From an uncultured Ignavibacteriaceae bacterium (GTDB lineage Bacteria; Bacteroidota; Ignavibacteria; Ignavibacteriales; Ignavibacteriaceae), in NCBI GenBank assembly GCA_964617905.1, contig CAZTZZ010000001.1, positions 28,080 through 92,079 on the forward strand: DNA of 64,000 nt. The letters run 5' to 3'. Below, piece after piece: positions 5,796-61,544 of the stretch (its first letter is position 1; each line of letters opens with the position of its first letter). The position numbers and the translations under genes were made by a program. The notes under the pieces are model-generated. The model worked only from the letters and a program-made list of their open reading frames with translations, searched no databases and was not told the DNA's origin.

Positions 5796-6059
5796 ATGCA
5801 CATTAAACCGGTGTCTAATAAAGTTTATTTAGGAAACGATGTTCCAGAAAATGTTAAAGGCAAAAAGGAAATAAAAGAAAATAAAGTTCATGACAAGCTT
5901 GAATTGTCTGAAGAAGCAAAAAACATTCAAAAGAAACAAGTACCTGATAAAAATCTTGAAAAGATTAAAGCCAGAATTGATAGCAAATATTATGATTCTG
6001 AAGAGATAATTAATAAAGTTGCTGAGAAAATGTTAAAGGATATTAACTCCGAGGGATAA
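5796..6059 (+). CDS. flgM: Anti-sigma-28 factor FlgM
   Basis: 87 aa. DKLELSEEAKNIQ...NLEKIKARIDSKYYDSEEIINKVAEKML matches the FlgM C-terminal sigma-28-binding region (D.V.LS..A ... KV..IK.AI..G.Y.VD...IA..L). Confidence 0.75.
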   Translation: MHIKPVSNKVYLGNDVPENVKGKKEIKENKVHDKLELSEEAKNIQKKQVPDKNLEKIKARIDSKYYDSEEIINKVAEKMLKDINSEG

Positions 6060-6174: not shown

Positions 6175-6906
6175 ATGTTGGAAATCGAAAAAAAAATTCA
6201 GGAAAATAAACTTCAATTATTAGGAAAACTGACTGCAAGTTTAATACACGAAATCCGAAATCCCCTGTCTGCTATTAAATTAACTTTTGATTTTCTAAAG
6301 TTAATTGAAACCTCGCTTCCTGAAGAAGCCATTGAATCTGTAGAACTTAGTAAAGAAGCACTTAACCGCATTCAATATCTTATTGATAACGTTCTGACAT
6401 TTTCACGAAAAAATGCAAAATATCAGGATAATTGTTCTTTAAATGAAATATCAAGAACCGCTGTTAATTTAATTAAATCGAGCGCAAAGAAAAAAAATAT
6501 AAAAATTGAGCTGGAATTAGATAACACTTTGCCAAATGGATGTTTTGATAAAAACAAAATCCTTCAAGTTTTTATTAATTTAATTACGAATGCTTTAGAA
6601 TCCTGCAGTCAAGGAGGAAAAGTTAAAATTAAAACCAGAGGGGATGACCCTGATTACATAATATGGGAAGTTATTGACAACGGTGAAGGTATTAACGAAG
6701 AAATTAAAGAAAAAATATTTCAGGATTTTTACACAAGTAAAGAAAATGGTACAGGTTTAGGTTTAAGTGTCTGCAAAATGCTATTACAGCCATATCAGGC
6801 AAAACTTGATTTTATAAGTACTGAGGGTGTAGGAACAAAATTTTTAATAATGTTTAATCCAAACTTAATGCAGATTAATGATGAAGTTCAAAGTATTAAT
6901 AGTTGA
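6175..6906 (+). CDS. Minimal cytoplasmic sensor histidine kinase (DHp + CA only), FlrB/FleS/FlgS-like by context
   Basis: H-box LTASLIHEIRNPLSAI with the His at about residue 25. N-box INLITNALES, G1 VIDNGEGI, G2 GTGLGLSV. No TM or input domain. It overlaps the downstream sigma-54 activator gene. Confidence 0.85.
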   Translation: MLEIEKKIQENKLQLLGKLTASLIHEIRNPLSAIKLTFDFLKLIETSLPEEAIESVELSKEALNRIQYLIDNVLTFSRKNAKYQDNCSLNEISRTAVNLIKSSAKKKNIKIELELDNTLPNGCFDKNKILQVFINLITNALESCSQGGKVKIKTRGDDPDYIIWEVIDNGEGINEEIKEKIFQDFYTSKENGTGLGLSVCKMLLQPYQAKLDFISTEGVGTKFLIMFNPNLMQINDEVQSINS

Positions 6907-8275
6907 TGATGATGATCTCGTATGTATTTCATTACGAAAATTATTAGTTAAACTTGGCTATGAAGTTGAAATATGTTTAAATGCAGGTGAAATATTTAAA
7001 ATAACTCAAGATTTTGAACCCGACATTATTCTCCTCGACATATATCTTACCACTCACAACGGACTTCATCTTTTAAAAGAGTTAAGGAAAAAGTTTTATA
7101 ATATACCTGTTATAATGATTACGGGTTATGCCGATGTGAAGATTGCTGTTTCTGCAATTAAATCCGGTGCTTTTGATTTCCTTTTAAAACCGATTGATAT
7201 CGAACAACTTCAAATTGTAATAAACAAAGCCCTCGATAATTTAACTTTAAAAGCTGAGGTAAATAAGCTGCACGAAATTATGAAGGGTGATGTTCTTACT
7301 AAAGATGTATTTGGGAAAAGTTTAAAAACACAAAAGCTTTTGAATTATGTAGAAAAACTTGCTGCAAGTTCCGATACCACTATTCTGTTACAAGGTGAAA
7401 GTGGAACCGGGAAGGAAGTTTTTGCAAAATACATTTATCAGAACAGTCCAAGAAAAAATGATACCTTTATCCAAATTAATTGTTCGGCAATTCCAAAGGA
7501 ACTTGCTGAAAGTGAATTATTCGGGCATGAAAAAGGGGCTTTTACTGGGGCTTCACAGAAAACCAAACTTGGTAAATTTGAATTAGCTAATGGCGGAACT
7601 ATTTTGTTGGATGAAATAGGTGAACTTTCTCTTGATCTGCAGGTTAAATTACTCAGGGTTTTACAAGAAAAAAGGTTCTACAGATTAGGGGGAGAAAAAG
7701 AAATTTCGGTTGATGTTAGAATTTTAGCAGCAACAAACAGAAATTTAGAGGAAGAAGTTAAAAAAGGAAATTTTAGAGAGGATTTATACTACAGGTTAAA
7801 TGTTGCAAGAATTCAAGTTCCACCTTTACGTGAAAGAAAAGAAGACATTCCTGTTTTAGCTTTTTCATTTCTATCCGAATTTGCTAAAAAGCTAAACAAA
7901 AATGTAAAAAACATTGATCAAGATGCAATAAAAAAGCTTAAAGAATATCCTTGGAAGGGTAATATCCGTGAATTAAAAAATATTATGGAAAGAGCTGCTC
8001 TGTTGCTCGATGAAGAAGAACTGAAGGAACACCATCTTTGTTATTTATTGGATGTAGGAGGTGAAGAAAATAAGGACGATTCGACAAATTTTGAACTAAA
8101 AATTCCCCCTAAAGGCGTAAAAGTTGATTTAGTACTTCGTACATTAATACAACAAACATTGAAGATAACAAAAGGAAATCAAGTAAGGGCTGCTAAAGTT
8201 TTAGGACTATCCAGATCAAAGCTCAGATATAGGATGGAACAACTTAATATTGAAGTAACAAAAAATGTTAATTAA
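6878..8275 (+). CDS. Sigma-54-dependent response regulator (REC + AAA+ + Fis-type HTH), FlrC/FleR/FlgR-like by context
   Basis: REC (VLIVDDDD..ILLDIYL..LLKP), Walker A GESGTGKE, GAFTGA motif in ELFGHEKGAFTGA, EDLYYRLNV, and C-terminal HTH NQVRAAKVLGLSRSKLRYRM. Confidence 0.9.
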   Translation: MMKFKVLIVDDDDLVCISLRKLLVKLGYEVEICLNAGEIFKITQDFEPDIILLDIYLTTHNGLHLLKELRKKFYNIPVIMITGYADVKIAVSAIKSGAFDFLLKPIDIEQLQIVINKALDNLTLKAEVNKLHEIMKGDVLTKDVFGKSLKTQKLLNYVEKLAASSDTTILLQGESGTGKEVFAKYIYQNSPRKNDTFIQINCSAIPKELAESELFGHEKGAFTGASQKTKLGKFELANGGTILLDEIGELSLDLQVKLLRVLQEKRFYRLGGEKEISVDVRILAATNRNLEEEVKKGNFREDLYYRLNVARIQVPPLRERKEDIPVLAFSFLSEFAKKLNKNVKNIDQDAIKKLKEYPWKGNIRELKNIMERAALLLDEEELKEHHLCYLLDVGGEENKDDSTNFELKIPPKGVKVDLVLRTLIQQTLKITKGNQVRAAKVLGLSRSKLRYRMEQLNIEVTKNVN

Positions 8276-21410: not shown

Positions 21411-21425
21411 TGGCATTTAATTTGA
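21411..21425 (+). promoter_or_regulatory. Candidate sigma-54 promoter upstream of flgB (non-canonical -12)
   Basis: TGGCAT-TTAAT-TTGA has the GG-N10-G spacing of TGGCAC-N5-TTGC, but with A in place of the -12 C. It ends 34 nt upstream of the flgB ATG, in a 125-nt gap. Confidence 0.4.
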
Positions 21426-33639: not shown

Positions 33640-33654
33640 TGGCATATCAATTGA
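33640..33654 (+). promoter_or_regulatory. Candidate sigma-54 promoter upstream of fliL (non-canonical -12)
   Basis: TGGCAT-ATCAA-TTGA has the same architecture as the flgB site. It ends 28 nt upstream of the fliL ATG and lies downstream of the flgE terminator. Confidence 0.4.
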
Positions 33655-42064: not shown

Positions 42065-42891
42065 TGATTGGACAAACCGAAAGAATATTAGAATTAAAAA
42101 ATTTAAGTAACAACCAAAATGAAACCGTGGGAAATAAAATTATTGCATTTACTTCCGGTAAGGGAGGTACAGGCAAAACTTTTCTTTCTATAAACATAGC
42201 CTATTCTTTAGCTGAACTGGGGAAAAAAATTTTATTTGTCGACCTGGATTCAAATCTGTCTAATGCTAATATAATGCTGAACATAGTTGCTGAAAAAACA
42301 ATTTATGATTTTTATACTGAAAAAAAATTATTGAAAGATATAATTACAAAAGTGAATCCTAATTTACATTTTATTTTTGGAGATTCGGGTAAACTTAATT
42401 ACCCGGATGCTCATGAAAATTTAATTTCCAAATTATACAATCAGATTATTTTCTTACAAAATTCCTACGATTTTGTTTTTTTTGATACCGGCTCTGGTGC
42501 CGGTAGAAGTATAATAAATGTTTTATTAAAAGCAGAAAAAGTTGTTATTGTAACATCACCCGAGCCGACAGCCGTAATGGATTCCTATGTAATGTTAAAA
42601 TTGTTAAGTGCTTCCGAATATAAAGGTGAAAAATTTGTAATAGTAAACAAAAGTTTTGGGGAAAATGACAAGCAATCGACTTTTAATAATCTTTCCAATG
42701 CTTCAGAACATTTCTTAAAAAAATCTATTTCGTATTTAGGTGGTGTCAAATTTGATGGTATTGCCAGTAAGTCAATTATAGAGCAGGAATTAGTTGTTAA
42801 AAAATATCCTGAATCAGAAATCACAAGGCAAATTAGAGTAATCGGAAGCAGTATTATTGAATTCACTCATATGGCTAATATTCTCCATTAG
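42064..42891 (+). CDS. flhG: MinD/ParA-type ATPase FlhG (FleN/YlxH)
   Basis: Deviant Walker A FTSGKGGTGKTFLSINIA, directly after flhF. Confidence 0.88.
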   Translation: MIGQTERILELKNLSNNQNETVGNKIIAFTSGKGGTGKTFLSINIAYSLAELGKKILFVDLDSNLSNANIMLNIVAEKTIYDFYTEKKLLKDIITKVNPNLHFIFGDSGKLNYPDAHENLISKLYNQIIFLQNSYDFVFFDTGSGAGRSIINVLLKAEKVVIVTSPEPTAVMDSYVMLKLLSASEYKGEKFVIVNKSFGENDKQSTFNNLSNASEHFLKKSISYLGGVKFDGIASKSIIEQELVVKKYPESEITRQIRVIGSSIIEFTHMANILH

Positions 42892-42969
42892 GGGATAAAA
42901 TAGAATAATAAATTTCTTCTAAAACCGCATTTTATAAACCTTCTTTACAAATTATAAATTCAACCCCTT

Positions 42970-42984
42970 TGGTATGGTATTTGA
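42970..42984 (+). promoter_or_regulatory. Candidate sigma-54 promoter upstream of the small ORF-fliA operon (non-canonical -12)
   Basis: TGGTAT-GGTAT-TTGA has the same spacing as the flgB and fliL sites. It ends 29 nt upstream of the ATG at 43013. Confidence 0.35.
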
Positions 42985-43012
42985 CTTTTTACTATAAAAT
43001 AAAAAGACGAAC

Positions 43013-43237
43013 ATGAACAAAATAGTATTACAATTTGGCCTATTAGTTTTTTCACTTTCACTTATTTTTTTTAGCCGTATAGGGCTGACTTTCGATCAAG
43101 TAATATTAAAGGCTTTTTTCGTCTTTGTTATCACAACAATCTTATTAAGCATAGTAGTATTGGTTTTTATTCGTGCAATTAATAAAGAATCATATAATAA
43201 GAAGATAGAATATTCAGAAAAAATTAACAGGAAATAA
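43013..43237 (+). CDS. Hypothetical small membrane protein (74 aa, two predicted TM segments)
   Basis: Hydrophobic stretches VLQFGLLVFSLSLIFF and AFFVFVITTILLSIVVLVFI. It ends 5 nt before fliA. Confidence 0.4.
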   Translation: MNKIVLQFGLLVFSLSLIFFSRIGLTFDQVILKAFFVFVITTILLSIVVLVFIRAINKESYNKKIEYSEKINRK

Positions 43238-43242
43238 TAAAA

Positions 43243-43869
43243 ATGAATAACGCAACTTTATGGGCTGAATTTAAATCCTCACCGAGCGTAGATCTAAAAA
43301 AACAAATTGTTTTAAATTATGTAAAGTTAGTCCATTATGTAATTCATTATTCAAAATTTGCAACACCTGGCATACTAGACGAAAGAGATTATTTTCAATT
43401 TGGTATTGAAGGATTAAGTGAAGCTATTGACCGTTTTGATCCGGACTTCGGAACAAAGTTCGAAACTTATGCAATACAAAGAATTAGGGGTAAAATTATT
43501 GATAAGTTGAGAAAAATTAAGATTAAAAAAAAGAAGACAATTGAAGACCAAAAACCTTCCTATTATAATAATGTTTCATTAACAAGTCCTGTTGACGGTG
43601 AAGACGGATATATGCTCTACGAGATTATTCCGGAAGACACAGAATTGCCAGATGAAACAACAGAAAAAAATGAAGCAAAGGAAATTTTACTTGAAGCAAT
43701 TAAAGATATGGAAGAAAGGGATAGAATGATAATTACTCTATATTATTATGAAAACCTTACATATAAAGAGATTGGTAAACTTCTTAATATTTCTGTTTCC
43801 CGTGTTTCGCAAGTACATACAAGAATAGTGAAAATGTTAAAAACTAAACTTCAATATTTAAATGCATAA
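43243..43869 (+). CDS. fliA: Flagellar sigma factor FliA (sigma-28)
   Basis: Region 2 FETYAIQRIRGKIIDKLR. Region 4.2 HTH YYYENLTYKEIGKLLNISVSRVSQVHTRIVKMLK. Confidence 0.9.
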   Translation: MNNATLWAEFKSSPSVDLKKQIVLNYVKLVHYVIHYSKFATPGILDERDYFQFGIEGLSEAIDRFDPDFGTKFETYAIQRIRGKIIDKLRKIKIKKKKTIEDQKPSYYNNVSLTSPVDGEDGYMLYEIIPEDTELPDETTEKNEAKEILLEAIKDMEERDRMIITLYYYENLTYKEIGKLLNISVSRVSQVHTRIVKMLKTKLQYLNA

Positions 43870-44740
43870 TCAATCGTCAGAAAATAATCCGCAAAGGCAA
43901 AGAACATTAAGATTATTATCTTCTATAAGAAACTTACCTTCTGTTCCTTCCATAATATTTGAAGTATCAAGATTATTAAACAATTCAAAAACAAGCGCAA
44001 CAGATCTTGGAAAAGTAATTAGTAAAGATCAGGGGCTTGTAGCAAGAATATTAACTGTTGCTAATTCACCATTATATGGATTACCAAGAAGAGTCTCCAC
44101 AATAGATTTTGCTATAGTTATTCTTGGATTCGATCATATTAAAAATATTGTAATGGCTCTTTCTATGATAGAATCCTTTAGAAGTAATCAAACACATAAT
44201 TGGGACAGTATGGCTTATATGAATCATTCATTATTTACGGCAAGCGCCACAAAGAGGATTGCCGATGAACTTGGATTTTCTAGAGCCGGTGAAGCTTTTA
44301 TTGCTGGTCTGCTGCACGATATAGGTATTATAATTATTCAAAAATATTTTAATAAAGAATTCAATCAAATTTGCGAAATTGTTGAGTCGCAGGAAATGCT
44401 TTATCTGAAAGCCGAAGAACAAGTCCTAGGACTTACACACCAAGAAATTGGTCAATTTATAGTTAGTAAATGGAATTTTCCCGAATCACTTGGTGACTCT
44501 ATTGCACATCATCATAAACCATCAATCTCAGAAAATAATAAGGTGCTTTCATCTGTAATTCATCTTGCGGATTATATGACTCAAAATTTATGTGCTGGTC
44601 ACTTTTATTGGGATGATAATATACAGTTGGACGAAAATATAATTCAAATATTAAGATTCGGAGACGAAAGCAAATTAAACAATTTTATTGAAAGCCATAC
44701 AGAGTTATTCAATAACAATTTAGAAGCAATAGAAACATAA
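43862..44740 (+). CDS. HDOD-domain protein (paralogue 1)
   Basis: LPSVPSIIFEVSRLLNNSKTSATDLGKVISKDQGLVARILTVANSPLYGL and AGLLHDIGIIII. The start overlaps the fliA stop by 8 nt. Confidence 0.8.
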   Translation: MHNQSSENNPQRQRTLRLLSSIRNLPSVPSIIFEVSRLLNNSKTSATDLGKVISKDQGLVARILTVANSPLYGLPRRVSTIDFAIVILGFDHIKNIVMALSMIESFRSNQTHNWDSMAYMNHSLFTASATKRIADELGFSRAGEAFIAGLLHDIGIIIIQKYFNKEFNQICEIVESQEMLYLKAEEQVLGLTHQEIGQFIVSKWNFPESLGDSIAHHHKPSISENNKVLSSVIHLADYMTQNLCAGHFYWDDNIQLDENIIQILRFGDESKLNNFIESHTELFNNNLEAIET

Positions 44741-44750
44741 AGATAATATT

Positions 44751-45635
44751 ATGATAACATTAGCATCAGAATTACAAAAAAGAAAAGAAAAGACAGAGTT
44801 GGTTTTAAGAAACATAACTAACCTTCCAACAACTCCAAGAATATTGGCAGAAACGATGGAGTTATTGAATAATCCAACTCTTAATAACCATAATCTGGCA
44901 AAAGCAATTTCTAAAGATCAGGGATTGGTTGTAAAAATATTGATGATTGCAAATTCTCCTTTGCTTGGTTTGCATAGAAAAGTTACAACTATTGATTATG
45001 CAATACTTGTTCTTGGTCATATTGAAATAAAGAACATTGTATCGGTTTTATCTGTAATTGAATCGTTTAAAAATAAAACGGATAAATATCTTAGTGAAAG
45101 AGATTTTTGGACACATTCATTTTTAACAGGAATAACATCAAGACGACTTGCGGATGATTTTGGCTTTCAAAATGAAGGTGAAGCTTTTGTTGCAGGATTT
45201 TTACACGATTTAGGAGTTTCTGTTATTCATAAATTTTTCCACTCTAATTTTATTGATATTTATAAACAAGTAAACGAACTTAATATTACTTTCCAAGAAG
45301 CTGAATTGAATGTGCTTGGTATGACACACCAACAAATTGGACATTATCTGATAGAAAAGTGGAATTTCCCGGATCAACTTTGCGATGCAATTTTAAACCA
45401 TCATAATCCCGAGAATTCAGTTAACAACAAAACCCTTTCAACAATTATTCATTTTGCAGATTATATGACTCAAAAATTAAATAGGGGGAGTGTTTTCTGG
45501 GATGATAATATACAGCTTAAAATAGAAGAATTAGGAATGTTAAAAATTAATAATATGGATGAAGTGGAAGATTTTATAGGTAAATATGAAAACTTATATA
45601 AAAATCAAATTGAATCTATAAGGTATTTTAATTGA
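44751..45635 (+). CDS. HDOD-domain protein (paralogue 2)
   Basis: LPTTPRILAETMELLNNPTLNNHNLAKAISKDQGLVVKILMIANSPLLGL and AGFLHDLGVSVI. Collinear with the upstream paralogue along its whole length. Confidence 0.8.
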   Translation: MITLASELQKRKEKTELVLRNITNLPTTPRILAETMELLNNPTLNNHNLAKAISKDQGLVVKILMIANSPLLGLHRKVTTIDYAILVLGHIEIKNIVSVLSVIESFKNKTDKYLSERDFWTHSFLTGITSRRLADDFGFQNEGEAFVAGFLHDLGVSVIHKFFHSNFIDIYKQVNELNITFQEAELNVLGMTHQQIGHYLIEKWNFPDQLCDAILNHHNPENSVNNKTLSTIIHFADYMTQKLNRGSVFWDDNIQLKIEELGMLKINNMDEVEDFIGKYENLYKNQIESIRYFN

Positions 45636-46933
45636 GAGTAATAAAAGAAATAGAATTATATTATGAGCCTTTTCACGAAACTCTGCCAATACTAACAAGA
45701 GATGCTGTATTAACAGGAATTAAACCGCTTAGTAAAAAATTCAAGGAAATCAGAAAATACGAAAAGAATAATAACTACGATAAATTTTCAGAACTATTTG
45801 CATTACAATATAGAATTAGCCGTTCCAGTGACTTTGTAGAATTAGAACAAATATTTTCGGGTTATGTAAAAAATTCATTAAAGTTTGCAGAAGCCAATTT
45901 GTTTTTTATAGATGAAAAATTTACTGTTATAGAATCCCTTTCTGGTAAAGAATCTTTTAAGACAAAAACATTTCTAAATACTTTACTTTCTTCAGGCGTA
46001 ATTAAACAATTGATTGAGAAAAAAAACAGTAAAATTCTTCCAGCCAATTTAGAGAAAAACAATAAAAAAGATAAAACTTTTTATTTGTTGATGCCTTTCT
46101 TTTTTAGTCCCAAAAATAATGGATGTCTAGTAGTTAAAGTTAATCCTACAATAACTACAAATTCACCGGAAATCAATTTACTTAAAATAGGGCTTGAAAT
46201 TATTTCAAAAAGAATTGAATTCCTGGATAAACAGAAAGAGCTAAAGAATGTTTATAACGACCTTCAATTATTCCAGTCCAAATTGGCGAATGATTATAAA
46301 CTATCTGCAATTGGAGAACTTACTACAGGTATTTTAGAAGACATACTATCACCCTTGCAGGTTATAACTAGTTATATAGATTTCATTAAAAAGGAAAATG
46401 ACCCGGATTATAATTCCGCACTTAATACAATTAACTTACAAGCAAAAAAAATAAACCGGGTTGTTAACAGGCTGATAAATTTTGCTAAACCCGTAGAAGG
46501 TAAACTTAAACTTCGCCCTTGTAATGTAAATGAAATAATTACGGAATTTTATAATATGGTTATCTCTACTCTGAAGAAAGATAACTATGAATGCATACTA
46601 GACCTTGATGAAAATATTCCGGGGATTCTTTCCCATCCTAATTACTTAAATCAAGCTTTGATGAACATGTTTCTTCTTTTAAAACCAGATGAAAACAAAG
46701 TGGGAGGTGTGTTGCTGCAAAGTAAGTATCGGGTTGGACAGGTACTTTTAAGACTTTTTACTACTGATTATTATAAAAATCTTGAGAAATGTAGCGTCAC
46801 GGATACAAATGACGTAAACATTAAAATTATTAAAAACATTATCTCTCAACACCAAGGGAAATTGGAAATAGATTCAGAAAAAAATAAGGGAACAATAATA
46901 ACTATTTCATTTCCAATAAAAAGGAAGATGTAA
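45632..46933 (+). CDS. Histidine-kinase-like protein with degenerate H-box and ATP-binding motifs (putative pseudokinase)
   Basis: The DHp-like segment reads LSAIGELTTGILEDILSPLQVI where kinases have G.AHE..NPL, placing Glu at the His position. The CA-like end (LNQALMNMFLLL ... NIKIIKNIISQHQGKLEIDSEKNKGTIITISFP) shows no DxGxG or GxGxG. The TTG start overlaps the HDOD stop. Confidence 0.55.
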   Translation: MRVIKEIELYYEPFHETLPILTRDAVLTGIKPLSKKFKEIRKYEKNNNYDKFSELFALQYRISRSSDFVELEQIFSGYVKNSLKFAEANLFFIDEKFTVIESLSGKESFKTKTFLNTLLSSGVIKQLIEKKNSKILPANLEKNNKKDKTFYLLMPFFFSPKNNGCLVVKVNPTITTNSPEINLLKIGLEIISKRIEFLDKQKELKNVYNDLQLFQSKLANDYKLSAIGELTTGILEDILSPLQVITSYIDFIKKENDPDYNSALNTINLQAKKINRVVNRLINFAKPVEGKLKLRPCNVNEIITEFYNMVISTLKKDNYECILDLDENIPGILSHPNYLNQALMNMFLLLKPDENKVGGVLLQSKYRVGQVLLRLFTTDYYKNLEKCSVTDTNDVNIKIIKNIISQHQGKLEIDSEKNKGTIITISFPIKRKM

Positions 46934-46934
46934 T

Positions 46935-47651
46935 ATGAGATATATTCTATTTTTCTTTCTTATTTGTTCGTTTGTAACATCAGACTTTGGGCAGAATAAA
47001 AGTGATACAATAAGTAAAATAAAATCCATATCTGACACATCAAGAACGACAGATACACACACATCTGTAGACAGTATAAATATAAAGCAAATTGTAGAAG
47101 GACAAATCAGAGCTATTAAAGAGAAACAACTTTGGAAAACAAAAAAACAAATTATTGTTACGGCTTTGAAAAATGAAACAACTCAACCCGAAATTAAAAA
47201 AGGATTAAATAACATATGGAGTAATTTTGTACAGAATACTTTAGCACCATTTTTTGCTAAAATACAAAATGTAATTTTTTACTCCGAAGGAATTTCCAAT
47301 CAATTGTCAATTTTAGGTATTGCATCCTTAATTACATTTTTAATTGTAATAATCAGAAGAAAAATCATAAATAAAAAACCACTAAGGAAGAACGGACTTA
47401 AAGATAGCATAAGACTACTTAGGGAAGAAAGAGTGGGTAATAAAGTGGACATAAACTTAAAAGGAATAAGGAATAGATTAGTTAATAACACCTTAACATA
47501 TAGAAACACTAAAGCCGGAATTACTAAAGTTGCAAAAGAAATGAATATTTCAAAGGGAGAAGTATTGCTGGCTGCAAAAATAAAATCATACGAGTTAGAC
47601 AATAACTGGTTAGGACGTATTAATAAAAAAATGTATTGGAGAATTTTTTAG
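46935..47651 (+). CDS. Hypothetical membrane protein
   Basis: N-terminal signal/anchor MRYILFFFLICSFV. Internal TM LSILGIASLITFLIVII. The basic C-terminal part includes an HTH-like stretch, ITKVAKEMNISKGEVLLAAKIK. Confidence 0.4.
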   Translation: MRYILFFFLICSFVTSDFGQNKSDTISKIKSISDTSRTTDTHTSVDSINIKQIVEGQIRAIKEKQLWKTKKQIIVTALKNETTQPEIKKGLNNIWSNFVQNTLAPFFAKIQNVIFYSEGISNQLSILGIASLITFLIVIIRRKIINKKPLRKNGLKDSIRLLREERVGNKVDINLKGIRNRLVNNTLTYRNTKAGITKVAKEMNISKGEVLLAAKIKSYELDNNWLGRINKKMYWRIF

Positions 47652-47686
47652 AATAAATGAAAAAAATTTATAAAAAGGAATTTTAA

Positions 47687-48394
47687 ATGATTAAAGGTAT
47701 TTATACAGCCGCAAGGGGATTAAACAGCAGGATGAAAAATCTTGAGATAGTTGCAAATAATCTGGCAAATCTTAATACCACAGGTTTTAAACGCGAACTA
47801 CCTTTTTCTGAAATAATGAATCAATATGGAAAAATAGATATTAAAAAAGCTACTGATTTTCAGCAGGGTAATCTTACTGAAACTTCGAATCCTCTTGATT
47901 TTGCAATATCGGGGAACGGGTTTTTTGTAATTCAGACTGAAACCGGCACAGAGCTTACACGCGATGGCAAGTTTAATATTTCAATTGACGGGTACTTAGT
48001 AACCCAGCAGGGAAATAAAGTATTAGGAAAAAACGGACCAATTAGTGTTAACAATTTATCACTGGATAATAATAAAAAATTAACAGTTTCTTCTGACGGC
48101 GAAATCAAATATGGAGATGATGTTATTGATACTCTTCTTGTAGCTAATTTGAATAACCCAGAGCAATCTGTGAGATCTACTGGTGTAAATTTTAAAACCG
48201 GAGATGACGGATTTAAAATTGCATCACCAAATTCATTTATAATCAAACAAGGTTTCCAGGAAGAATCAAATATAAATCCGATAATGGAAATGCAGGCAAT
48301 GATACAGCTAAACACAGAATATGACTCCGCACACAAGATGATAAATTATTTAGATCGGTCACTTGGTCAAGCAAATCAAATTGGGAAAGTCTAA
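47687..48394 (+). CDS. flgF: Proximal rod protein FlgF
   Basis: IYTAARGLNSRMKNLEIVANNLANLNTTGFKRE and C-terminal QGFQEESNINPIMEMQAMIQLNTEYDSAHKMI. Confidence 0.85.
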   Translation: MIKGIYTAARGLNSRMKNLEIVANNLANLNTTGFKRELPFSEIMNQYGKIDIKKATDFQQGNLTETSNPLDFAISGNGFFVIQTETGTELTRDGKFNISIDGYLVTQQGNKVLGKNGPISVNNLSLDNNKKLTVSSDGEIKYGDDVIDTLLVANLNNPEQSVRSTGVNFKTGDDGFKIASPNSFIIKQGFQEESNINPIMEMQAMIQLNTEYDSAHKMINYLDRSLGQANQIGKV

Positions 48395-48410
48395 AAAAAG
48401 GAGATAAGAT

Positions 48411-49208
48411 ATGCCAAACAGAGCTTTAAGAACTGCAGCATCCGGAATGTATGCACAAGAGTTAAATATTGAAGTAATCTCAAACAATATTGCAAATATT
48501 AATACTACGGGATACAAAAGGAATAAAGCAGAATTTCAGGATTTAATGTATCAGCAAGTTAATGTAAATCCTGTAAATTCTTCAATACCGGGCGTTAATG
48601 ATAATCCTGCTAATTCAATTCAGGTTGGGAACGGCGTTGTTCCAACATCAACGGCAAAGATATTTACTCAGGGAGACATTACTCCTACGAATAATCAAAT
48701 GGATTTCGCAATTCAAGGTGATGGTTTTTTTCAAGTAAGAAAAGAAGATGGAACATTTGCGTATACTCGTGACGGGTCATTCAAGGTAAATGCTGATGGG
48801 AAAATAGTAACCTCCAGCGGTTATGTTGTTGATCCGGAATTATCTATTGATGAAAATGCGATTGGGATATCTGTGGGAAAAGAGGGTACTGTTACTGTAC
48901 AAGAAGCAGGCGGTAATTCATATGTATTAGGAAATATTGAACTTGCACGATTTATGAATCCCGGCGGTTTGAAAGCATTAGGTAATAATTTATATGCTCA
49001 GACAGAATCCTCAGGAACACCAATAATAGGTGCACCTGGCAAAGACGGTTTTGGTAATATTAGTCAAGGTTATCTGGAATCTTCTAATGTAGATATTGTT
49101 GAAGAAATGATATCAATGATAGCAGCACAAAGAGCTTACGAAATAAATTCTAAAACTGTACAAACAGTACAGGAAATGATGCAGATGGCAAATAACCTGA
49201 AAAGATAA
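48411..49208 (+). CDS. flgG: Distal rod protein FlgG
   Basis: ALRTAASGMYAQELNIEVISNNIANINTTGYKRNKAEFQDLMYQ and C-terminal GYLESSNVDIVEEMISMIAAQRAYEINSK. Confidence 0.93.
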   Translation: MPNRALRTAASGMYAQELNIEVISNNIANINTTGYKRNKAEFQDLMYQQVNVNPVNSSIPGVNDNPANSIQVGNGVVPTSTAKIFTQGDITPTNNQMDFAIQGDGFFQVRKEDGTFAYTRDGSFKVNADGKIVTSSGYVVDPELSIDENAIGISVGKEGTVTVQEAGGNSYVLGNIELARFMNPGGLKALGNNLYAQTESSGTPIIGAPGKDGFGNISQGYLESSNVDIVEEMISMIAAQRAYEINSKTVQTVQEMMQMANNLKR

Positions 49209-49211
49209 ATT

Positions 49212-49871
49212 ATGAGCACATTAATATTAGTAATATTTTCGTTTTTTATTCAAACCGGCACCCCTTTAAAAAGTCAGCTGGAAAATTATATGAATAAAAA
49301 CCTTACGAATTATACAAATTCCGGTGAGTATGAGTTCGAAATCATAAAACTGCCTAAGTTATATAAAGAGATTGTTTTATTAAAACCGAATGAATTCAAT
49401 ATAAAAGGAAATTTTGTTTATCTGCCGGTTAAAATTGTTAAGAATAGCGGAAGAGTTGTTAAAACATTTTTAACTATTAAAGTAAAAATATTCCGTAATG
49501 TACTTGTAACCAAGAAAAGAATTAACAGAAAAGAAAATCTTAAACCCGAAAATTTTAGATACGAGAAAAGGGATATTACTATAATAAAAGGAACTCCCAT
49601 TTATAAGTTGGATAGAATCCGCTTGTATAGAAGCAAGGTACTTAAACAACCCGATAATGTTTTAACTTCTGAGATTATAGAAAAAATTCCTATTGTAAAT
49701 GTGGGGGATGAGTTGATGGCAAAATATGTAACCGGAAATATTCTTGTTACTTTCAGGGCTTTTGCAAGACAGGAGGGGGCATCTGGCGATGTGATTTCAG
49801 TAATTACTAAAGATAAAAAACTGTTTAAAGGTAAAATATTTGATTCAAAAAATTTAAATATAGTAGAGTGA
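49212..49871 (+). CDS. flgA: P-ring assembly chaperone FlgA
   Basis: C-terminal SAF-type segment VNVGDELMAKYVTGNILVTFRAFARQEGASGDVISVITKDKKLFKGKI. Position before flgH-flgI. Confidence 0.75.
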   Translation: MSTLILVIFSFFIQTGTPLKSQLENYMNKNLTNYTNSGEYEFEIIKLPKLYKEIVLLKPNEFNIKGNFVYLPVKIVKNSGRVVKTFLTIKVKIFRNVLVTKKRINRKENLKPENFRYEKRDITIIKGTPIYKLDRIRLYRSKVLKQPDNVLTSEIIEKIPIVNVGDELMAKYVTGNILVTFRAFARQEGASGDVISVITKDKKLFKGKIFDSKNLNIVE

Positions 49872-49873
49872 AT

Positions 49874-50437
49874 ATGAAAGCCATAATTACATTAAGCATT
49901 TGCTTGCTCGCGTCAAATATGTTTGCACAGGATATGAGACAAAACATTTTTTCTTCTCTTTTCTCAGACCAAAAAGCAAATAAAATTGGAGATGCTATTA
50001 CTATCCTTGTCATTGAATCTTCACAGGCATCAAATAATGCAGAAACAAGTACGGGAAGAACAAGTGACCTTGGTTTTACACAAAAAATGCAGGACGGGAC
50101 TCCCGGTACAGGAATTACAATTGGATCAAATAATAACTTTAAAGGTTCGGGGTTTACAAAAACCCAAGGAATTGTCAGAACAAAAATCAGTGCTACGGTA
50201 GATTCTGTCTTGGCTAACGGTAATCTTGTTATAAAAGGTGAGAGAAAGATAATAATAAACGGTCAAGAACAGAAAGTATTTATTAAAGGTATTGTAAGAA
50301 TATCTGATATCGCTCCTGATAATTCAGTGTTATCATATAATATTTCAAATGCAGAGATAGTTTTTAGCGGTGAAGGATCAATTAATAGCTCGCTTTCTCC
50401 CGGTTGGTTAACCAAGTTTTTCCATTGGATTTTTTAG
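49874..50437 (+). CDS. flgH: L-ring protein FlgH
   Basis: LFSDQKANKIGDAITILVIESSQASNNAETSTGR and VLANGNLVIKGERKIIINGQEQKVFIKGIVR. I prefer the ATG at 49874 to the GTG at 49868. Confidence 0.88.
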   Translation: MKAIITLSICLLASNMFAQDMRQNIFSSLFSDQKANKIGDAITILVIESSQASNNAETSTGRTSDLGFTQKMQDGTPGTGITIGSNNNFKGSGFTKTQGIVRTKISATVDSVLANGNLVIKGERKIIINGQEQKVFIKGIVRISDIAPDNSVLSYNISNAEIVFSGEGSINSSLSPGWLTKFFHWIF

Positions 50438-50445
50438 GAATTATA

Positions 50446-51534
50446 ATGAAAAAATTAATTGTAATATATCTGTTGTTAGGTATAAGCCTTTTATACGGGC
50501 AAAGAATTAAAGATATCGCTTATTTAAACGGTGAAAAATCCGAACAGATAATTGGTTACGGATTAGTTGTAGGACTAGCAAGCACGGGAGATACTCAACG
50601 TTCTACATTTACTATTCAATCAATCACAAGTATGTTAAAAAGATTTGGAATTACTGTACCGCAAAATAATTTACGTGTAAGGAATGTAGCAGCAGTTATG
50701 GTTACCGCCACTTTAAGTTCATATCTGAAACCGGGTGCAAAATTTGATTTAACGGTTTCTTCGATGGGTGATGCAACTAGCCTTCAAGGGGGCACATTAT
50801 TGATGACTCCTTTGTCTGGGATGACAGGTGGTGTTTACGGATTCGGGCAGGGGCCTATTTCAGTTGGAGGTTATGATTTTAGAACTCGTACAGGAAACCG
50901 TATAGCAAAGAATCATACTCTTGGAGGAAGAGTTCCATTGGGAGGGATATTACAAACAACTATGCGCCAAAATAATGTTTCAAAAACTGAAGTCAGTGTT
51001 TATTTACGAGAGCCGGACATAACAACTTCTAATAATATTGCGGCGGCAATTAATAGCAAATTAGGCAAAGACATAGCAATTCCTAATGATGCTGCTGAAG
51101 TAAAAGTAAAAGTTCCTTCAGACAAGCAGAAAAATTTTATTTCTTTCTTAGCAGAGCTTGAAAACATTGAGGTGGAAAAAGATAATATTGCAAAGGTAGT
51201 TTTGGATGAAAGAAGCGGAACTATAGTTGCAGGTAATAAAGTGAAAATATTACCTTCTTCAATAACTCACGGTAGTCTTAATATTACTATAAGATCCTTT
51301 CCAATAATTTCGCAGCCAAATGCTTTTTCAAATGGAACCACAACTGTGTTTAATAACCTGGTCCCTTATGTTTCACAAGATTCCACCAATACAATTGCTA
51401 TTGAAGGAGCTTCAAATGTGCAACAGGTAGCTGCAGCGCTTAACTCATTAAAGGTTTCACCCAGGGATATAATTGCAATTTTTCAGGCATTAAAAAAAGC
51501 AGGTGCTCTTATCGGTGAACTGGAGGTAATATGA
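50446..51534 (+). CDS. flgI: P-ring protein FlgI
   Basis: Signal peptide MKKLIVIYLLLGISLLYG, then QRIKDIAYLNGEKSEQIIGYGLVVGLASTGD. The ORF-track start at 50404 adds 14 non-signal residues and overlaps flgH. Confidence 0.92.
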   Translation: MKKLIVIYLLLGISLLYGQRIKDIAYLNGEKSEQIIGYGLVVGLASTGDTQRSTFTIQSITSMLKRFGITVPQNNLRVRNVAAVMVTATLSSYLKPGAKFDLTVSSMGDATSLQGGTLLMTPLSGMTGGVYGFGQGPISVGGYDFRTRTGNRIAKNHTLGGRVPLGGILQTTMRQNNVSKTEVSVYLREPDITTSNNIAAAINSKLGKDIAIPNDAAEVKVKVPSDKQKNFISFLAELENIEVEKDNIAKVVLDERSGTIVAGNKVKILPSSITHGSLNITIRSFPIISQPNAFSNGTTTVFNNLVPYVSQDSTNTIAIEGASNVQQVAAALNSLKVSPRDIIAIFQALKKAGALIGELEVI

Positions 51535-56195: not shown

Positions 56196-56209
56196 ACTCT
56201 TCCGGACCT

Positions 56210-59722: not shown

Positions 59723-60505
59723 ATGTCCGAAGAGAAAAGCAGCCAACCGATAATTGTTAAGAAAATAAACAAGCATGGAGGACATCACGGCGGTGCGTGG
59801 AAGGTTGCTTATGCTGACTTTGTTACGGCTATGATGGCATTATTTATTGTTTTATGGATATTAGGACAAGATCAAAAAATCAGAAATTCTGTTGCCCACT
59901 ATTTTAAAAACCCAATTGGATTTTCTAATAAAGGAAAGAATATTTTAGTTGGTGATAATTCCGGTTTATCAGGGGCTAATGATGCACAAAAAAACAGCAA
60001 ATTAATATCCCGATTACAAGAAATGAAAATTTTAAGAGAAATGGGCGAGAAACTTCTGGGGGAATTAAAAAAAAATGAAACTTTTAAATCTCTGGCCGGA
60101 CAAATAAAAATTGATTTTGTTAAAGAAGGTTTAAGGATAGAAATATTAGAATCATCTAAAGACTTTTTTTTTGAAATAGGTACGGCTAAACTTAAAAAAT
60201 CAGCAAGACTTCTTTTAGCACAAATTGGAAATAACCTTGCGAAATTACCGAATAAAATAATTTTACAGGGTCACACAGATTCACGCCCTTATTCAGGAGG
60301 AGGTAAAGGTTATACTAATTTTGAACTGAGTGCAGACAGAGCAAATTCGGCAAGACGAGCTTTAATTGCCGACAGTTTATCTGAAAAACAAATATTCGAA
60401 GTTAATGGTTTTGCTGATAGTAAATTAAGAGACCCCAAACATCCATACAGTTTTATAAACAGACGAATAAGTATTATAGTCAAATATACGGACGAAGGAA
60501 AATGA
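59723..60505 (+). CDS. motB: Stator protein MotB, set 2
   Basis: HHGGAWKVAYADFVTAMMALFIVLWIL, closely resembling the E. coli MotB N-terminus. OmpA-like LQGHTDSRPY..NFELSADRANSARRAL..NRRISIIV. Confidence 0.88.
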   Translation: MSEEKSSQPIIVKKINKHGGHHGGAWKVAYADFVTAMMALFIVLWILGQDQKIRNSVAHYFKNPIGFSNKGKNILVGDNSGLSGANDAQKNSKLISRLQEMKILREMGEKLLGELKKNETFKSLAGQIKIDFVKEGLRIEILESSKDFFFEIGTAKLKKSARLLLAQIGNNLAKLPNKIILQGHTDSRPYSGGGKGYTNFELSADRANSARRALIADSLSEKQIFEVNGFADSKLRDPKHPYSFINRRISIIVKYTDEGK

Positions 60506-60894
60506 AAAAAATTCTTGTTGTGGAAGATAATCAGTTAATTATTGATTTTTATAAAATTATTCTAAAAAATGCCGGTTATTATCCTGTTGTTCTTGAGGAC
60601 GGAGAAAAAATTATGAGTTTACTGGCTCAAGATGAGGTTAGTTTAATTATTATGGATATAAACTTGGGCAATTGTTATCTTTCAGGTGAAAAAATTGATG
60701 GTATCAAACTTTCTAATCATATAAAGCAAGATGTAAGGTTCTTTAGTATTCCATTAATAATGGTTTCTGCCTATACACCTGATATTTTAGAAGGAAGGAT
60801 TGATGGCAACTACAAACCGGATTGTTTTTTGACTAAACCAATTTTAGATTTTGACATATTAATTAATAAAATAAATCAGTTAGTATTAAATTGA
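60502..60894 (+). CDS. Single-domain response regulator with an insertion after the phospho-acceptor Asp
   Basis: ILVVEDN..LIIMDINLGNCYLSGEKIDGIKL..LIMVSAY..FLTKPI. ATGA overlap with motB set 2. Confidence 0.8.
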   Translation: MKKILVVEDNQLIIDFYKIILKNAGYYPVVLEDGEKIMSLLAQDEVSLIIMDINLGNCYLSGEKIDGIKLSNHIKQDVRFFSIPLIMVSAYTPDILEGRIDGNYKPDCFLTKPILDFDILINKINQLVLN

Positions 60895-61544
60895 ATACGA
60901 ATAAAATTCTCGTTGTGGAAGATGAAAAGGATACACTTTTTATCTTAGAAAGGCTCCTTTTGAAAAATAATTACCAGGTTTTTACTGCAACCAACGGTCA
61001 GGAAGCACTAGAGATGCTAAAAAAAATGATGCCAGATGTAATTATTGCAGATTGGACTATGCCGATAATAGATGGGATTGAATTGTGCGATATTATTAAA
61101 AAAGATGAAAAATACAAACTGATTTATTTTATATTATTAACTGCAAGGGCTTCTTTGAAAGACCGAGTTGCGGGTTTAGATATTGGTGCAGATGATTTTC
61201 TTGTAAAACCGGTTCAGAATCAAGAAATTATGGCACGAATTAGGTCAGGTATTAGAATTCATAATTTACAGAATGAATTAAAAAGAATTGAACATGGTAA
61301 AGTACTTTTAGAGATGGCAGCAACAATCGGTCATAAAATTAATAATCCTTTAAGCAGCTTGTTGATGACTATTAAAAGTCTTGAAGATGATTTAAAAAAT
61401 GATGAAAATAAATTTGAAGAGGATTTTCAAATAATTAATGCATCTATTGAAAGAATTAAAAAGCTTGCGAACGACCTTTCCCAAATTAAAGTTCCGGAAA
61501 TAATTGATTACACAGCCGATAGCAAAATGATAAAATTAGAATAG
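60891..61544 (+). CDS. REC + DHp (HisKA-like) protein with no ATPase domain
   Basis: REC (ILVVEDEKD..VIIADWTMPIIDGIEL..FILLTA..FLVKPV), then LLEMAATIGHKINNPLSSLLMTI (H-box). The protein ends about 70 aa later with no N/G1/G2 boxes. The TTG start overlaps the previous stop. Confidence 0.75.
   Translation: MNTNKILVVEDEKDTLFILERLLLKNNYQVFTATNGQEALEMLKKMMPDVIIADWTMPIIDGIELCDIIKKDEKYKLIYFILLTARASLKDRVAGLDIGADDFLVKPVQNQEIMARIRSGIRIHNLQNELKRIEHGKVLLEMAATIGHKINNPLSSLLMTIKSLEDDLKNDENKFEEDFQIINASIERIKKLANDLSQIKVPEIIDYTADSKMIKLE

Follow-up and report, generated by a model that had tools for sequence, protein, structure and literature searches.

A conserved cassette of two HDOD proteins and a histidine-kinase homologue adjoins the sigma-28 gene in the flagellar operon of an Ignavibacteriales bacterium

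What are two HDOD genes and a kinase-like gene doing directly behind fliA, the gene for sigma-28, inside a flagellar operon? In the window, the whole 64,000-nt stretch of DNA analysed, seven tightly packed or overlapping genes run from a sigma-54-type promoter motif into a block of the order flgF-G-A-H-I-J, flgN, flgK, flgL, motA, motB. The fliA stop and the HDOD1 start overlap by 8 nt (ATGCATAA) and the HDOD2 stop and the kinase-like start by 4 nt (TTGA); HDOD1 is separated from HDOD2 by 10 nt, the kinase-like gene from the membrane-protein gene by 1 nt, and the latter from flgF by 35 nt. A sequence-only reading had described this packed order, from a small 2-TM ORF through fliA, HDOD, HDOD, the kinase-like gene and a membrane protein to flgF-motB, together with both overlaps; all of the ORFs lie where it placed them, and both overlaps can be read in the sequence. 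On the + strand we found no terminator-like site between 42891 and 52000 and no sigma-28-type motif between 43000 and 48000, and no recognisable promoter or terminator precedes the flgF block. The locus is a probably sigma-54-driven flgV-fliA operon of an Ignavibacteriales bacterium, and between sigma-28 and the gene for a putative TM+HTH (FipA-like) protein it holds a conserved signalling cassette of two HDODs and a histidine-kinase homologue.

Table 1. Positions of the operon genes, the promoter motif and linked regulators in the window
Feature	Coordinates	Strand	Description
Candidate flgM (expected anti-sigma-28 factor)	5796..6059	+	87 aa
Soluble FlgS-like histidine kinase	6175-6906	+	
NtrC-type sigma-54 activator	6878-8275	+	
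Sigma-54-type promoter motif TGGTAT-N5-TTGA	42970..42984	+	reads TGGTATGGTATTTGA
Small 2-TM ORF	43013-43237	+	FlgV-like, 74 aa
fliA (sigma-28)	43243-43869	+	208 aa
HDOD1, stand-alone	43862-44740	+	292 aa; PF08668 8e-61
HDOD2	44751-45635	+	294 aa; PF08668 7e-52
Kinase-like gene (putative pseudo-histidine kinase)	45632-46933	+	433 aa
Membrane protein, putative TM+HTH	46935-47651	+	238 aa; no Pfam match
flgF	47687-48394	+	opens rod, ring, hook-associated block
REC protein and REC-DHp protein	60502..61544	+	130 aa and 217 aa

The promoter motif carries the -24 GG and the -12 TTG at the correct spacing, and the C of the consensus GC is kept at only some of the orthologous sites. The window contains 8 copies of the pattern TGGYAY-N5-TTG, where 1.9 would be expected. 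A motif of this type lies upstream of the flgV-like gene in all 11 loci of the window's order that have this intergenic region, is also kept in locus L039, and recurs in 6/6 loci of a non-flagellated Ignavibacteria family (f15), where it is the sole such motif in each locus. The genome encodes rpoN, and the FlgS-like kinase and the NtrC-type activator (6175..8275) are likely to drive the promoter; the activator is 56% identical to the one that adjoins the sigma-HDOD cassette in the non-flagellated family. Orthologues of the window's REC and REC-DHp proteins (39% and 46% identity) are encoded in that family directly 3' of the kinase-like gene. The candidate flgM product has a FlgM-like C-terminus and matches PF04316 at E=0.075, under the cut-off, and the flagellin gene at 2401 is preceded, at 2293, by the 26-nt motif TAAA-N16-CCGATA, a promoter motif cognate to sigma-28.

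The sequence-only reading had put no family name on the small ORF or the membrane protein. Neither is an unknown: the first resembles FlgV and the second the TM+HTH (FipA/DUF2802-like) protein, both published members of the flhF-flhG-flgV-sigma28 submodule (PMC11607428, PMC11620751). The FlgV family comprises 2-TM proteins that have a polar tail, carry a conserved basic residue within TM2 and are encoded between flhG and fliA (PMC11607428). The window ORF sits between the same two genes, and its product has two TM segments, a basic K33 that starts TM2 (K or R in relatives) and a polar tail, with [KR][SA]F at the TM2 start in all orthologues read. It gave no significant Pfam or NCBIfam match, the libraries searched returning no FlgV family, and we assign it to that family provisionally, by position and signature. 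The membrane protein has a single TM segment, a signal/anchor sequence, a DSINIKxIV motif on the periplasmic side and a cytoplasmic C-terminal A-x7-GE-x2-LA motif; in the latter, A200 and E209 do not vary among 22 orthologues, and conservation is at least 90% at G208 and L212. Among its 22 positional orthologues, 7 match DUF6115 (best 3.1e-6) and 6 match DUF2802 (best 1.6e-5), two DUF2802/DUF6115 matches having bit scores that are both under the cut-offs; the window copy matches neither at E<=1, and hhalign of order-level against distant orthologues gave 82% probability. We therefore call it a putative TM+HTH protein, FipA/DUF2802- or DUF6115-like. In Vibrio, Pseudomonas and Shewanella, FlhF has FipA (DUF2802) as its membrane partner (PMC11620751), and the window protein shares with FipA the TM anchor, the cytoplasmic C-terminal G...E..L motif and the place at the end of an flhA-flhF-flhG-fliA operon. 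Some of its orthologues match DUF2802 or DUF6115; the window copy itself has no Pfam match, and its long periplasmic N-terminal part carries a conserved motif of its own.

The gene order of the window is that of the flhF-flhG-flgV-sigma28-(FapA-YjfB)-TM+HTH submodule (Zamba-Campero et al. 2024, Nat Commun 15:10417; PMC11607428), with a 2-TM protein, basic at TM2, encoded between flhG and fliA, and the set closed by a membrane protein whose tail is HTH-like, except that HDOD-HDOD-pseudokinase stands between sigma-28 and TM+HTH instead of FapA and YjfB. That study makes no mention of HDOD, does not list FCB phyla and places all members inside the flagellar superoperon (PMC11607428), whereas here the 2-TM gene is kept in a non-flagellated family.

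How widely this arrangement is shared was the first point the sequence-only reading had put forward for checking, and the synteny survey of fliA-HDOD-(HDOD)-kinase was clearly positive, class-wide and beyond. All through Ignavibacteria the fliA, HDOD and kinase genes follow one another in this order, as they do in MAGs labelled Calditrichota, Fibrobacterota and Latescibacteria. The order is present in 19/20 genome regions fetched around kinase homologues, in two loci of close relatives (L001 and L002) and in 17 further Ignavibacteria/Bacteroidota-labelled loci (L049-L064 and L072, the contig ending before the kinase position in L053, L058 and L060), and fliA lies immediately upstream of HDOD in 11 loci whose label reads Calditrichota, Fibrobacterota or Latescibacteria or is missing; these counts are biased because the loci, other than those of f15, which were found through FliA, were picked by homology to cassette genes. 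The cassette and operon genes have dN/dS values of 0.05-0.19 (fliA 0.045, HDOD1 0.076, HDOD2 0.088, FlgV-like ORF 0.11, kinase-like gene 0.116, TM+HTH gene 0.19), indicating purifying selection, the values being rough because dS is near saturation (about 1).

Both HDOD proteins score above the PF08668 cut-off of 22.9 bits (205.4 for HDOD1, 176.2 for HDOD2) and give HD and HDIG profile matches, and HDOD1 aligns to the di-iron HDOD structure 3HC1 at 5e-36. Among 13 sequences, H122, H152-D153, H193 and H217-H218 do not vary, and conservation is at least 90% at H234 and D237. The di-metal ligand set of 3HC1, five His and one Asp, is complete in HDOD1 and HDOD2 alike, and we predict that both bind metal. 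They are 45% identical and form sister clades confined to the window's order in a quick tree (SH-aLRT 94), which bears out their earlier description as tandem paralogues. The fold family includes G. sulfurreducens 3HC1, C. jejuni Cj0248 (1VQR) and Pseudomonas SadB, none of which is reported as a fixed neighbour of fliA, unlike the window HDODs. SadB links the family to the control of motility and biofilms and offers a precedent for an adaptor role (PMC6543031, PMC12075610); it has lost most of the metal ligands that the window HDODs keep.

The intact H..HD..H..HH..D ligand set and the HD and HDIG matches are also what would be expected if the HDODs, in the way of HD-GYP proteins, served as enzymes for a nucleotide second messenger or as its receptors, the messenger being c-di-GMP or something related, with the kinase-like protein regulating them. 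SadB of P. fluorescens was reported to bind c-di-GMP (PMC6543031), and HDOD genes occur inside flagellar export operons without an adjacent fliA, for example in Armatimonadota. We consider this reading unlikely: the GYP motif is absent from the HDOD proteins, a later study of SadB from P. aeruginosa detected no binding of c-di-GMP and assigned the HDOD domain the role of a ligand-free protein adaptor (PMC12075610), and genomes that lack a flagellar motor still carry the cassette.

The third cassette protein has the architecture of a GAF-DHp-CA histidine kinase, with a GAF-like domain, a DHp helix that is its best-conserved part and a CA domain that has degenerated; it stays under both Pfam cut-offs, with 25.7 bits for HisKA and 20.7 bits (cut-off 26.4) for HATPase_c. 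Its AF2 model (pLDDT 72) has a sensor-DHp-CA fold with Foldseek matches to histidine kinases (E down to 8e-13), including YF1, DivL, ZraS and HK853, and its best NCBIfam matches are AtoS and ZraS. In sister families its positional orthologues, with which it is colinear, are intact GAF-HisKA-HATPase kinases. Glu stands in place of the acceptor His (GILEDILSPL versus AHEINNPL), the position being E in 16/19 and Q in 3/19 loci of the order and His in sister families; the N-box is degenerate or lost, about 10 residues are deleted in the G1/F-box region, and the G1, F and G2 motifs are all gone. The sequence-only reading had called the kinase degenerate, and the replaced acceptor His and lost ATP-binding boxes agree with that. 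The protein is, by these motifs, predicted to be no longer able to autophosphorylate: a dead kinase, yet one under purifying selection. DivL of Caulobacter is a histidine-kinase homologue without the acceptor His that has been reused as sensor and scaffold (PMC4211667). The window kinase resembles DivL, which (as 4Q20) is among its top structural matches, in its replaced acceptor His, retained DHp-CA fold and conserved sequence; DivL has a Tyr acceptor and a largely intact CA domain, whereas the window's order has Glu or Gln at that position and has lost the ATP-binding motifs.

Loss of kinase catalysis with retention of the scaffold has occurred at least three separate times, in the window's order, in Calditrichota, whose homologue keeps the acceptor His and has lost N, G1 and G2, and in f15. 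Within the order it has company. FliA of the window has regions 2 and 4 and is missing about 40 aa corresponding to region 3, scoring 141.7 bits against TIGR02479, under the 189.6 cut-off; it is nonetheless, following flhF-flhG, the positional orthologue of full-length FliA. FliA measures 208-218 aa in 20/20 loci of the order, against 242-272 aa in flagellated sister families (one exception, a 215-216-aa copy in L135), and loss of FliA region 3, duplication of the HDOD and death of the kinase coincide perfectly across loci. The form with two HDODs and a dead kinase is a derived state common to the window's whole order, the ancestral cassette having comprised one core HDOD plus an active GAF kinase.

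Sister families keep an active kinase, and in several of them sigma region 4 also recurs as a copy fused to an HDOD. These HDOD-sigma70_r4 fusions, about 40 protein clusters, score above the Pfam cut-offs and yield a model that is confident for both domains; the 4.1 helix is conserved and the recognition helix variable. With its degenerate recognition helix, the region-4 copy looks like a built-in mimic of sigma-28. A profile search found no sigma-like domain in HDOD1 or HDOD2 of the window, so the decoy idea does not apply directly there.

The non-flagellated family bears on function. In f15 the sigma-54 motif, the 2-TM ORF, a FliA-like sigma, an HDOD and the kinase-like gene are all kept, and the cassette lies beside genes orthologous to the activator, REC and REC-DHp genes of the window, while FlhA and flagellin are absent in the five f15 genomes sampled (97-100% complete). 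Retention with promoter and sigma gene in such a family points to control of the sigma circuit, not to flagellar assembly. The cassette had been proposed as an uncharacterised module acting on FliA activity or on late flagellar assembly; the same result favours the former and speaks against the latter. It also makes it very improbable that these are assembly or placement factors working with FlhF, FlhG, FlgV and the FipA-like protein, even though the rest of the flhF-flhG-flgV-fliA-TM+HTH submodule in which the genes are embedded serves assembly or placement (PMC11607428, PMC11620751), and a variant in which they are passengers unrelated to fliA is opposed by purifying selection and by gene order conserved across phyla.

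The explanation we favour, with moderate confidence, is that the cassette controls sigma-28, or the sigma-54-to-sigma-28 circuit, post-translationally. A more tentative alternative moves its action to a higher or a parallel level, the two-component part of the circuit, where the pseudo-kinase would bind the receiver of the NtrC-type activator or of REC/REC-DHp, or heterodimerise with the FlgS-like kinase, and so feed back on sigma-54-dependent early gene expression, with the HDODs as accessory sensors. DivL reads DivK~P and RetS blocks GacS, and both offer models for such a role. The AtoS/ZraS-type affinity of the kinase fits action upstream of fliA, these being partners of sigma-54 activators; DivL and ZraS are among the top fold matches, the DHp helix is what is best conserved, and in f15 the kinase-like gene has the activator on its 5' side and REC and REC-DHp directly 3'. 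In a Chitinispirillaceae MAG, an HDOD gene lies between cheA and a hybrid kinase. Such a role leaves unexplained, however, the linkage of HDOD to fliA across phyla and the fusion of HDOD to sigma region 4 in sister families, and the phosphatase motif beside the acceptor position is altered as well (EDILS versus HExxN).

For control of sigma-28 itself we propose the following steps, inferred from gene order, motifs and distribution. The cassette would be produced together with FliA from one activator-dependent promoter. The HDOD metal pocket could sense redox state, a gas or a nucleotide, and the HDODs would bind FliA, probably at region 4, or the anti-sigma factor FlgM, and thereby set the level of free sigma-28; candidate FlgM alone might suffice for that control. 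The dead kinase may have been retained, much like DivL, to sense and to scaffold; through its GAF domain and DHp surface it would couple a second signal, or the phosphorylation state of the REC proteins of the cluster, to the HDODs. The sister-family arrangement, a sensor fused to a degenerate sigma region-4 copy and adjoining the cognate sigma gene, resembles the PhyR-NepR-sigma(EcfG) partner switch, a case of sigma-factor mimicry, with the differences that the window HDODs carry no sigma-like domain, that the sensor is an HDOD and not a receiver, and that no NepR-like partner was identified. A GHKL-fold protein encoded with a sigma factor likewise recalls anti-sigma kinases of the SpoIIAB/RsbW type, except that the kinase-like protein is a DHp-CA histidine-kinase homologue and not a serine kinase.

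We found no publication on the HDOD/kinase cassette in the literature. Its conservation across several phyla, and even in relatives without flagella, would mark it as an undescribed partner of sigma-28 regulation.

The sequence-only reading had described a fliA operon in the window in which two HDOD genes, a kinase-like gene and a membrane-protein gene run into flgF-motB, and all of its ORFs were recovered by ORF listing and profile searches. Profile searches place flhA, flhF and a MinD-type flhG upstream of a small two-transmembrane (2-TM) ORF, which is followed by fliA, HDOD1, HDOD2, the kinase-like gene and the membrane-protein gene; flgG, flgA, flgH, flgI, flgJ (rod-binding domain plus SLT), flgN, flgK, flgL, motA and motB lie 3' of flgF in this order. 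From fliA to flgF, neighbouring genes in turn overlap by 8 nt, lie 10 nt apart, overlap by 4 nt (TTGA) and are separated by 1 nt and then by 35 nt; the fliA/HDOD1 and HDOD2/kinase-like overlaps reported earlier are thus present in the sequence. The window has a G+C content of ~30%, and among public sequences it is closest to MAGs with the labels Ignavibacteria and Ignavibacteriaceae. Measured against the closest relative, all block genes are under purifying selection, with dN/dS values (rough, because dS is ~1) of 0.045 (fliA), 0.08-0.09 (HDOD genes), 0.12 (kinase-like gene), 0.19 (membrane-protein gene) and 0.11 (2-TM ORF). As listed, motA and motB share 145 nt, and the real motB start is therefore probably further downstream.

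Coordinates of features in the window and in compared genomic loci (L numbers)
Feature	Locus	Coordinates	Strand	Remarks
candidate flgM	window	5796-6059		87 aa; between 110-aa ORF (after fliD) and FlgS-like kinase
soluble FlgS-like kinase and NtrC-type activator	window	6175-8275
sigma-54-type motif before flgB	window	21411-21424	+	TGGCATTTAATTTG
sigma-54-type motif before ORF at 33682	window	33640-33653	+	TGGCATATCAATTG
sigma-54-type motif before 2-TM ORF	window	42970	+	TGGTATGGTATTTGA
2-TM ORF	window	43013-43237		74 aa
fliA	window	43243-43869		profile searches; product lacks region 3
HDOD1	window	43862-44740		profile searches
HDOD2	window	44751-45635		profile searches
kinase-like gene	window	45632-46933		HisKA and HATPase_c matches, both under Pfam cut-offs
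sigma-28-like motif, TAAA-N14-CCGATA	window	46727-46750	-	antisense within kinase-like gene
membrane-protein gene	window	46935-47651		238 aa; no match in Pfam search
flgF	window	47687-48394		profile searches
motA	window	55416-56195
motB	window	56051-56905
REC gene	window	60502-60894
REC-DHp gene	window	60891-61544
GAF kinase behind HDOD	L076	9935-11353
FliK-like gene	L024	11714-13100
FliK-like gene	L076	12809-13951
stand-alone HDOD gene	L045, L046	6001-6867		between fliR and flhB
collapsed regulatory locus	L131	1895-9319		flagellum-less family

The window contains 8 copies of the sigma-54-type motif TGGYAY-N5-TTG, where 1.9 would be expected. Three copies are intergenic and on the + strand, and the one before the 2-TM ORF is kept at the same position in 11 of 11 order-level loci having that intergenic region. 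The genome contains rpoN, and the window itself encodes an NtrC-type activator at 6878-8275. Sigma-28-type motifs (TAAA-N14-16-CCGATA) precede flagellin, where a TAAA-N16-CCGATA match lies at 2293, and occur at three other + strand sites, with none on the + strand between 43000 and 48000; nor is there a terminator-like site on the + strand from 42891 to 52000. Because consensus promoter and terminator scans returned sites no more numerous than in shuffled sequence, we used them as negative evidence only. Given the kept sigma-54 site and the lack of + strand sigma-28 motifs and terminator-like sites, a single transcript running from 42970 across the HDOD and kinase-like genes into flgF would be the simplest reading of the sequence. 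An antisense promoter inside the kinase-like gene was set aside; its motif is probably a chance match, since its spacer is 14 nt and that of the other four matches, all on the + strand, is 16.

Full-length homologues of the kinase-like protein are found in many genomes of the class Ignavibacteria. Among 20 regions of 20 kb fetched around such homologues, 19 share a common order: flhA-flhF-flhG, a small TM ORF, fliA, one to three HDOD genes, the kinase, a membrane protein whose C-terminal part carries a GE..L motif, optional FliK-like and FlhB-C-like genes, and then flgF. A second search, with an HDOD alignment as query, yielded 80 loci from many phyla. HDOD and kinase-like genes directly behind fliA (hereafter, the cassette) occur in all 17 further Ignavibacteria- or Bacteroidota-labelled loci (L049-L064, L072), the contig ending before the kinase in L053, L058 and L060; the flanks of L127, labelled Ignavibacteriales, are without any flagellar gene. 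Flagellar genes lie in the flanks of ~20 of the other 62 loci, and in 11 of those fliA is directly upstream of the HDOD gene. Of these 11, the labelled ones are Calditrichota, Fibrobacterota/Chitinispirillaceae or Latescibacteria and the rest are MAGs without a label; several have a GAF kinase directly 3' of HDOD. One Calditrichota locus, read over its whole length, has flhG, 2-TM ORF, fliA, HDOD, GAF kinase, a TPR/TM protein bearing two GE..L motifs and a FliK-like gene in this order. The gene order first noticed in a single window is therefore conserved across the class, and its fliA-HDOD core extends beyond it.

Other arrangements were also seen. In Desulfobacterales, an HDOD gene, sometimes with a kinase, lies ~5 kb upstream of flgB. 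Two Armatimonadota loci (L045, L046) place a stand-alone HDOD gene within the export operon, with fliA not adjacent, and in three Fibrobacteria-labelled MAGs (L087, L088, L101) a FliN-like gene directly follows HDOD, no other flagellar genes being detected in the flanks. Many relatives (L024, L025, L026, L027, L040, L035, L039, L076) encode a FliK-like protein of 367-450 aa, with a Flg_hook match in L039, between the membrane-protein gene and flgF, and several of them an FlhB-C-terminal-like ORF of ~95 aa in the same interval; the window has neither. G103, a 100%-complete genome of the window's family, yielded neither a FliA match at E<=1e-25 nor a kinase-like orthologue, and has probably lost both flagellum and cassette.

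The two membrane proteins of the block resemble published families. FlgV proteins have two TM segments, the second with a conserved basic residue, and a polar tail; their genes lie between flhF-flhG and a submodule of sigma-28, FapA, YjfB and 'TM+HTH' (PMC11607428). The window's 2-TM ORF fits this family. The FlgV paper does not mention HDOD or list FCB phyla (PMC11607428). The 238-aa protein corresponds to the 'TM+HTH' gene of that submodule: 6-7 of its 22 positional orthologues have weak matches to DUF6115 or to DUF2802, which is FipA, a membrane partner of FlhF (PMC11620751), and hhalign of the membrane-protein alignments gives a match confined to the N-terminal motif. Because the window's own copy matches neither DUF2802 nor DUF6115, its membership in a TM+HTH/FipA-like family is, from these comparisons, only likely.

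In the window's order, Ignavibacteriales (20 loci, including Melioribacter- and Ignavibacteriaceae-labelled MAGs), the cassette has taken a derived form: a short FliA, a duplicated core HDOD and a dead kinase coincide without exception across 40-odd loci. FliA is 208-218 aa long in the order and 242-272 aa in the sister families, where L135 (215-216 aa) is the sole length exception among flagellated loci. The short form reflects a clean deletion of ~40 residues that removes region 3. Region-3-less FliA is encoded in the window and in L001, L002, L023-L028, L040-L042, L049-L055 and L072; across the order, FliA is an ECF-like two-domain sigma-28.

The order has two HDOD genes of ~290 aa each, and sister families have one core HDOD of 286-317 aa, which in at least three of them (f4, f11, f16) is accompanied by one or two longer copies of 344-406 aa. 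Because HDOD1 and HDOD2 form sister clades restricted to the order (quick tree, SH-aLRT 94), the phylogeny indicates that the core HDOD was tandemly duplicated there; an origin from a sigma-4 fusion is not supported. HDOD1 aligns with the di-iron HDOD structure 3HC1 at 5e-36, and all metal ligands are kept in HDOD1, HDOD2 and 11 relatives. The extension of the longer copies is sigma-70 region 4, matched above Pfam cut-offs, which rules out a receiver domain on the long first HDOD of sister families. Such HDOD-sigma4 fusions form ~40 clusters in public data, all named ones labelled Bacteroidota or Bacteroidetes; their region 4.1 helix (ALxYYE) is invariant and their recognition helix variable, and structure prediction gives two confident domains joined by a floppy linker.

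In the predicted model of the window's kinase-like protein, residues 48-170 form a GAF-like domain; the model also has a long linker helix, a pair of DHp helices and an alpha/beta domain of CA type, and its best structural matches are sensor kinases, including YF1, DivL, ZraS and HK853. The acceptor His of sister families is replaced in the order by Glu (16 loci) or Gln (3 loci), and the N, G1 and G2 boxes, nearly always all present in sister families, are gone. Same-position kinases in L076 and L090 (both Calditrichota-labelled) and in L067 retain the acceptor His (AHEINNPL) but no longer have N, G1 or G2 boxes; judged from these motifs, their loss of ATP binding is independent of that in the window's order. 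Because the Calditrichota kinases have the His and none of the three boxes, catalysis has disappeared on more than one occasion with the protein itself retained.

The best case for linking the HDOD and kinase pair to a sigma circuit is made by a family without flagella, f15, found by a FliA search at E<=1e-25, a threshold too strict for counting flagellated families. FHIPEP (FlhA) and flagellin are both absent from five f15 genomes of 97-100% completeness, each of which keeps one collapsed regulatory locus of fixed gene order (loci of the family: L129-L134). This runs from an NtrC-type activator (sharing 56% identity with that of the window) and a REC protein through the locus's only sigma-54 motif to a 74-aa 2-TM ORF, a 230-aa FliA-like sigma, HDOD, a kinase-like protein that has diverged strongly, a REC (39% identical to the window's REC at 60502-60894) and a REC-DHp protein (46% identical to the window's). 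The f15 435-aa ORF has no BLASTP match to the window's pseudo-kinase and is colinear only with an intact kinase, at E=0.005. An insensitive FlgM profile found no match in f15; the absence is weak evidence, because that profile (PF04316) gives the window's own candidate, whose C-terminus is FlgM-like, only E=0.075. In f15 the structural genes have disappeared while the regulatory ones remain together, which argues that the pair is part of the sigma circuit rather than of the assembly machinery. The sequence-only reading had allowed for action on FliA or on late flagellar assembly; the former is favoured, whereas the latter is at odds with a cassette kept without flagella, and an assembly or passenger role is very improbable. 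The f15 gene neighbourhood, together with the AtoS/ZraS-like DHp domain, is also what would be expected if the cassette acted on receiver proteins or the sigma-54 activator, which is the main rival reading and which we consider unlikely.

Direct action on FliA or FlgM, to which we give an even chance, is favoured because the fliA-HDOD adjacency is fixed across phyla, because sister families have a sigma-4 mimic and because the cassette co-varies with FliA architecture. An activator-dependent promoter would drive the cassette together with FliA, and the cassette would control sigma-28 availability or the surrounding circuit. The earlier observations on ORFs and junctions are confirmed, and the interpretation placed on them is supported in part, its mechanism being inferred. 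More tentatively, and with the balance against it, stand-alone di-metal HDOD proteins may form a new class of regulator that binds sigma-28 (or FlgM), with the dead GAF kinase as an obligate scaffold; they would then gate the late flagellar sigma in response to redox state, a gas or a nucleotide, whether or not FlgM is secreted. If true, the orphan HDOD domain would gain its first defined molecular role, and the survival of the HDOD/kinase pair in non-flagellated lineages would be explained.

To our knowledge, HDOD is a widespread signalling domain without an agreed function. Its only link to motility in the literature is through Pseudomonas SadB, first reported to bind c-di-GMP (PMC6543031) and later shown to be a ligand-independent adaptor for AmrZ proteolysis (PMC12075610). 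A nucleotide-messenger role for the cassette seems to us decidedly improbable. Full-text literature searches for HDOD with FliA, or with histidine kinase and flagella, returned nothing on this cassette, and the I. album genome paper describes a 71-gene flagellar cluster, mentioning neither fliA nor HDOD. The cassette is a widespread arrangement of known domains not found in the literature searched, and we class it with systems in which accessory sensors and pseudo-kinases regulate alternative sigma factors.

Because HDOD is fixed beside the well-understood sigma-28 across several phyla, it has a concrete, testable partner. The genera Ignavibacterium and Melioribacter belong to the window's order, with I. 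album and M. roseus as cultured type strains; as related loci also carry Melioribacter sp. and Ignavibacteriaceae labels, experiments are feasible. The lineages further offer natural 'mutants': kinases that are active, lack ATP-binding motifs or lack the acceptor His; HDOD alone or with the sigma-4 mimic; FliA having or lacking region 3; and flagellated and non-flagellated hosts. Comparing them could reveal what controls sigma-28 apart from FlgM secretion, and in what ways dead histidine kinases are repurposed.
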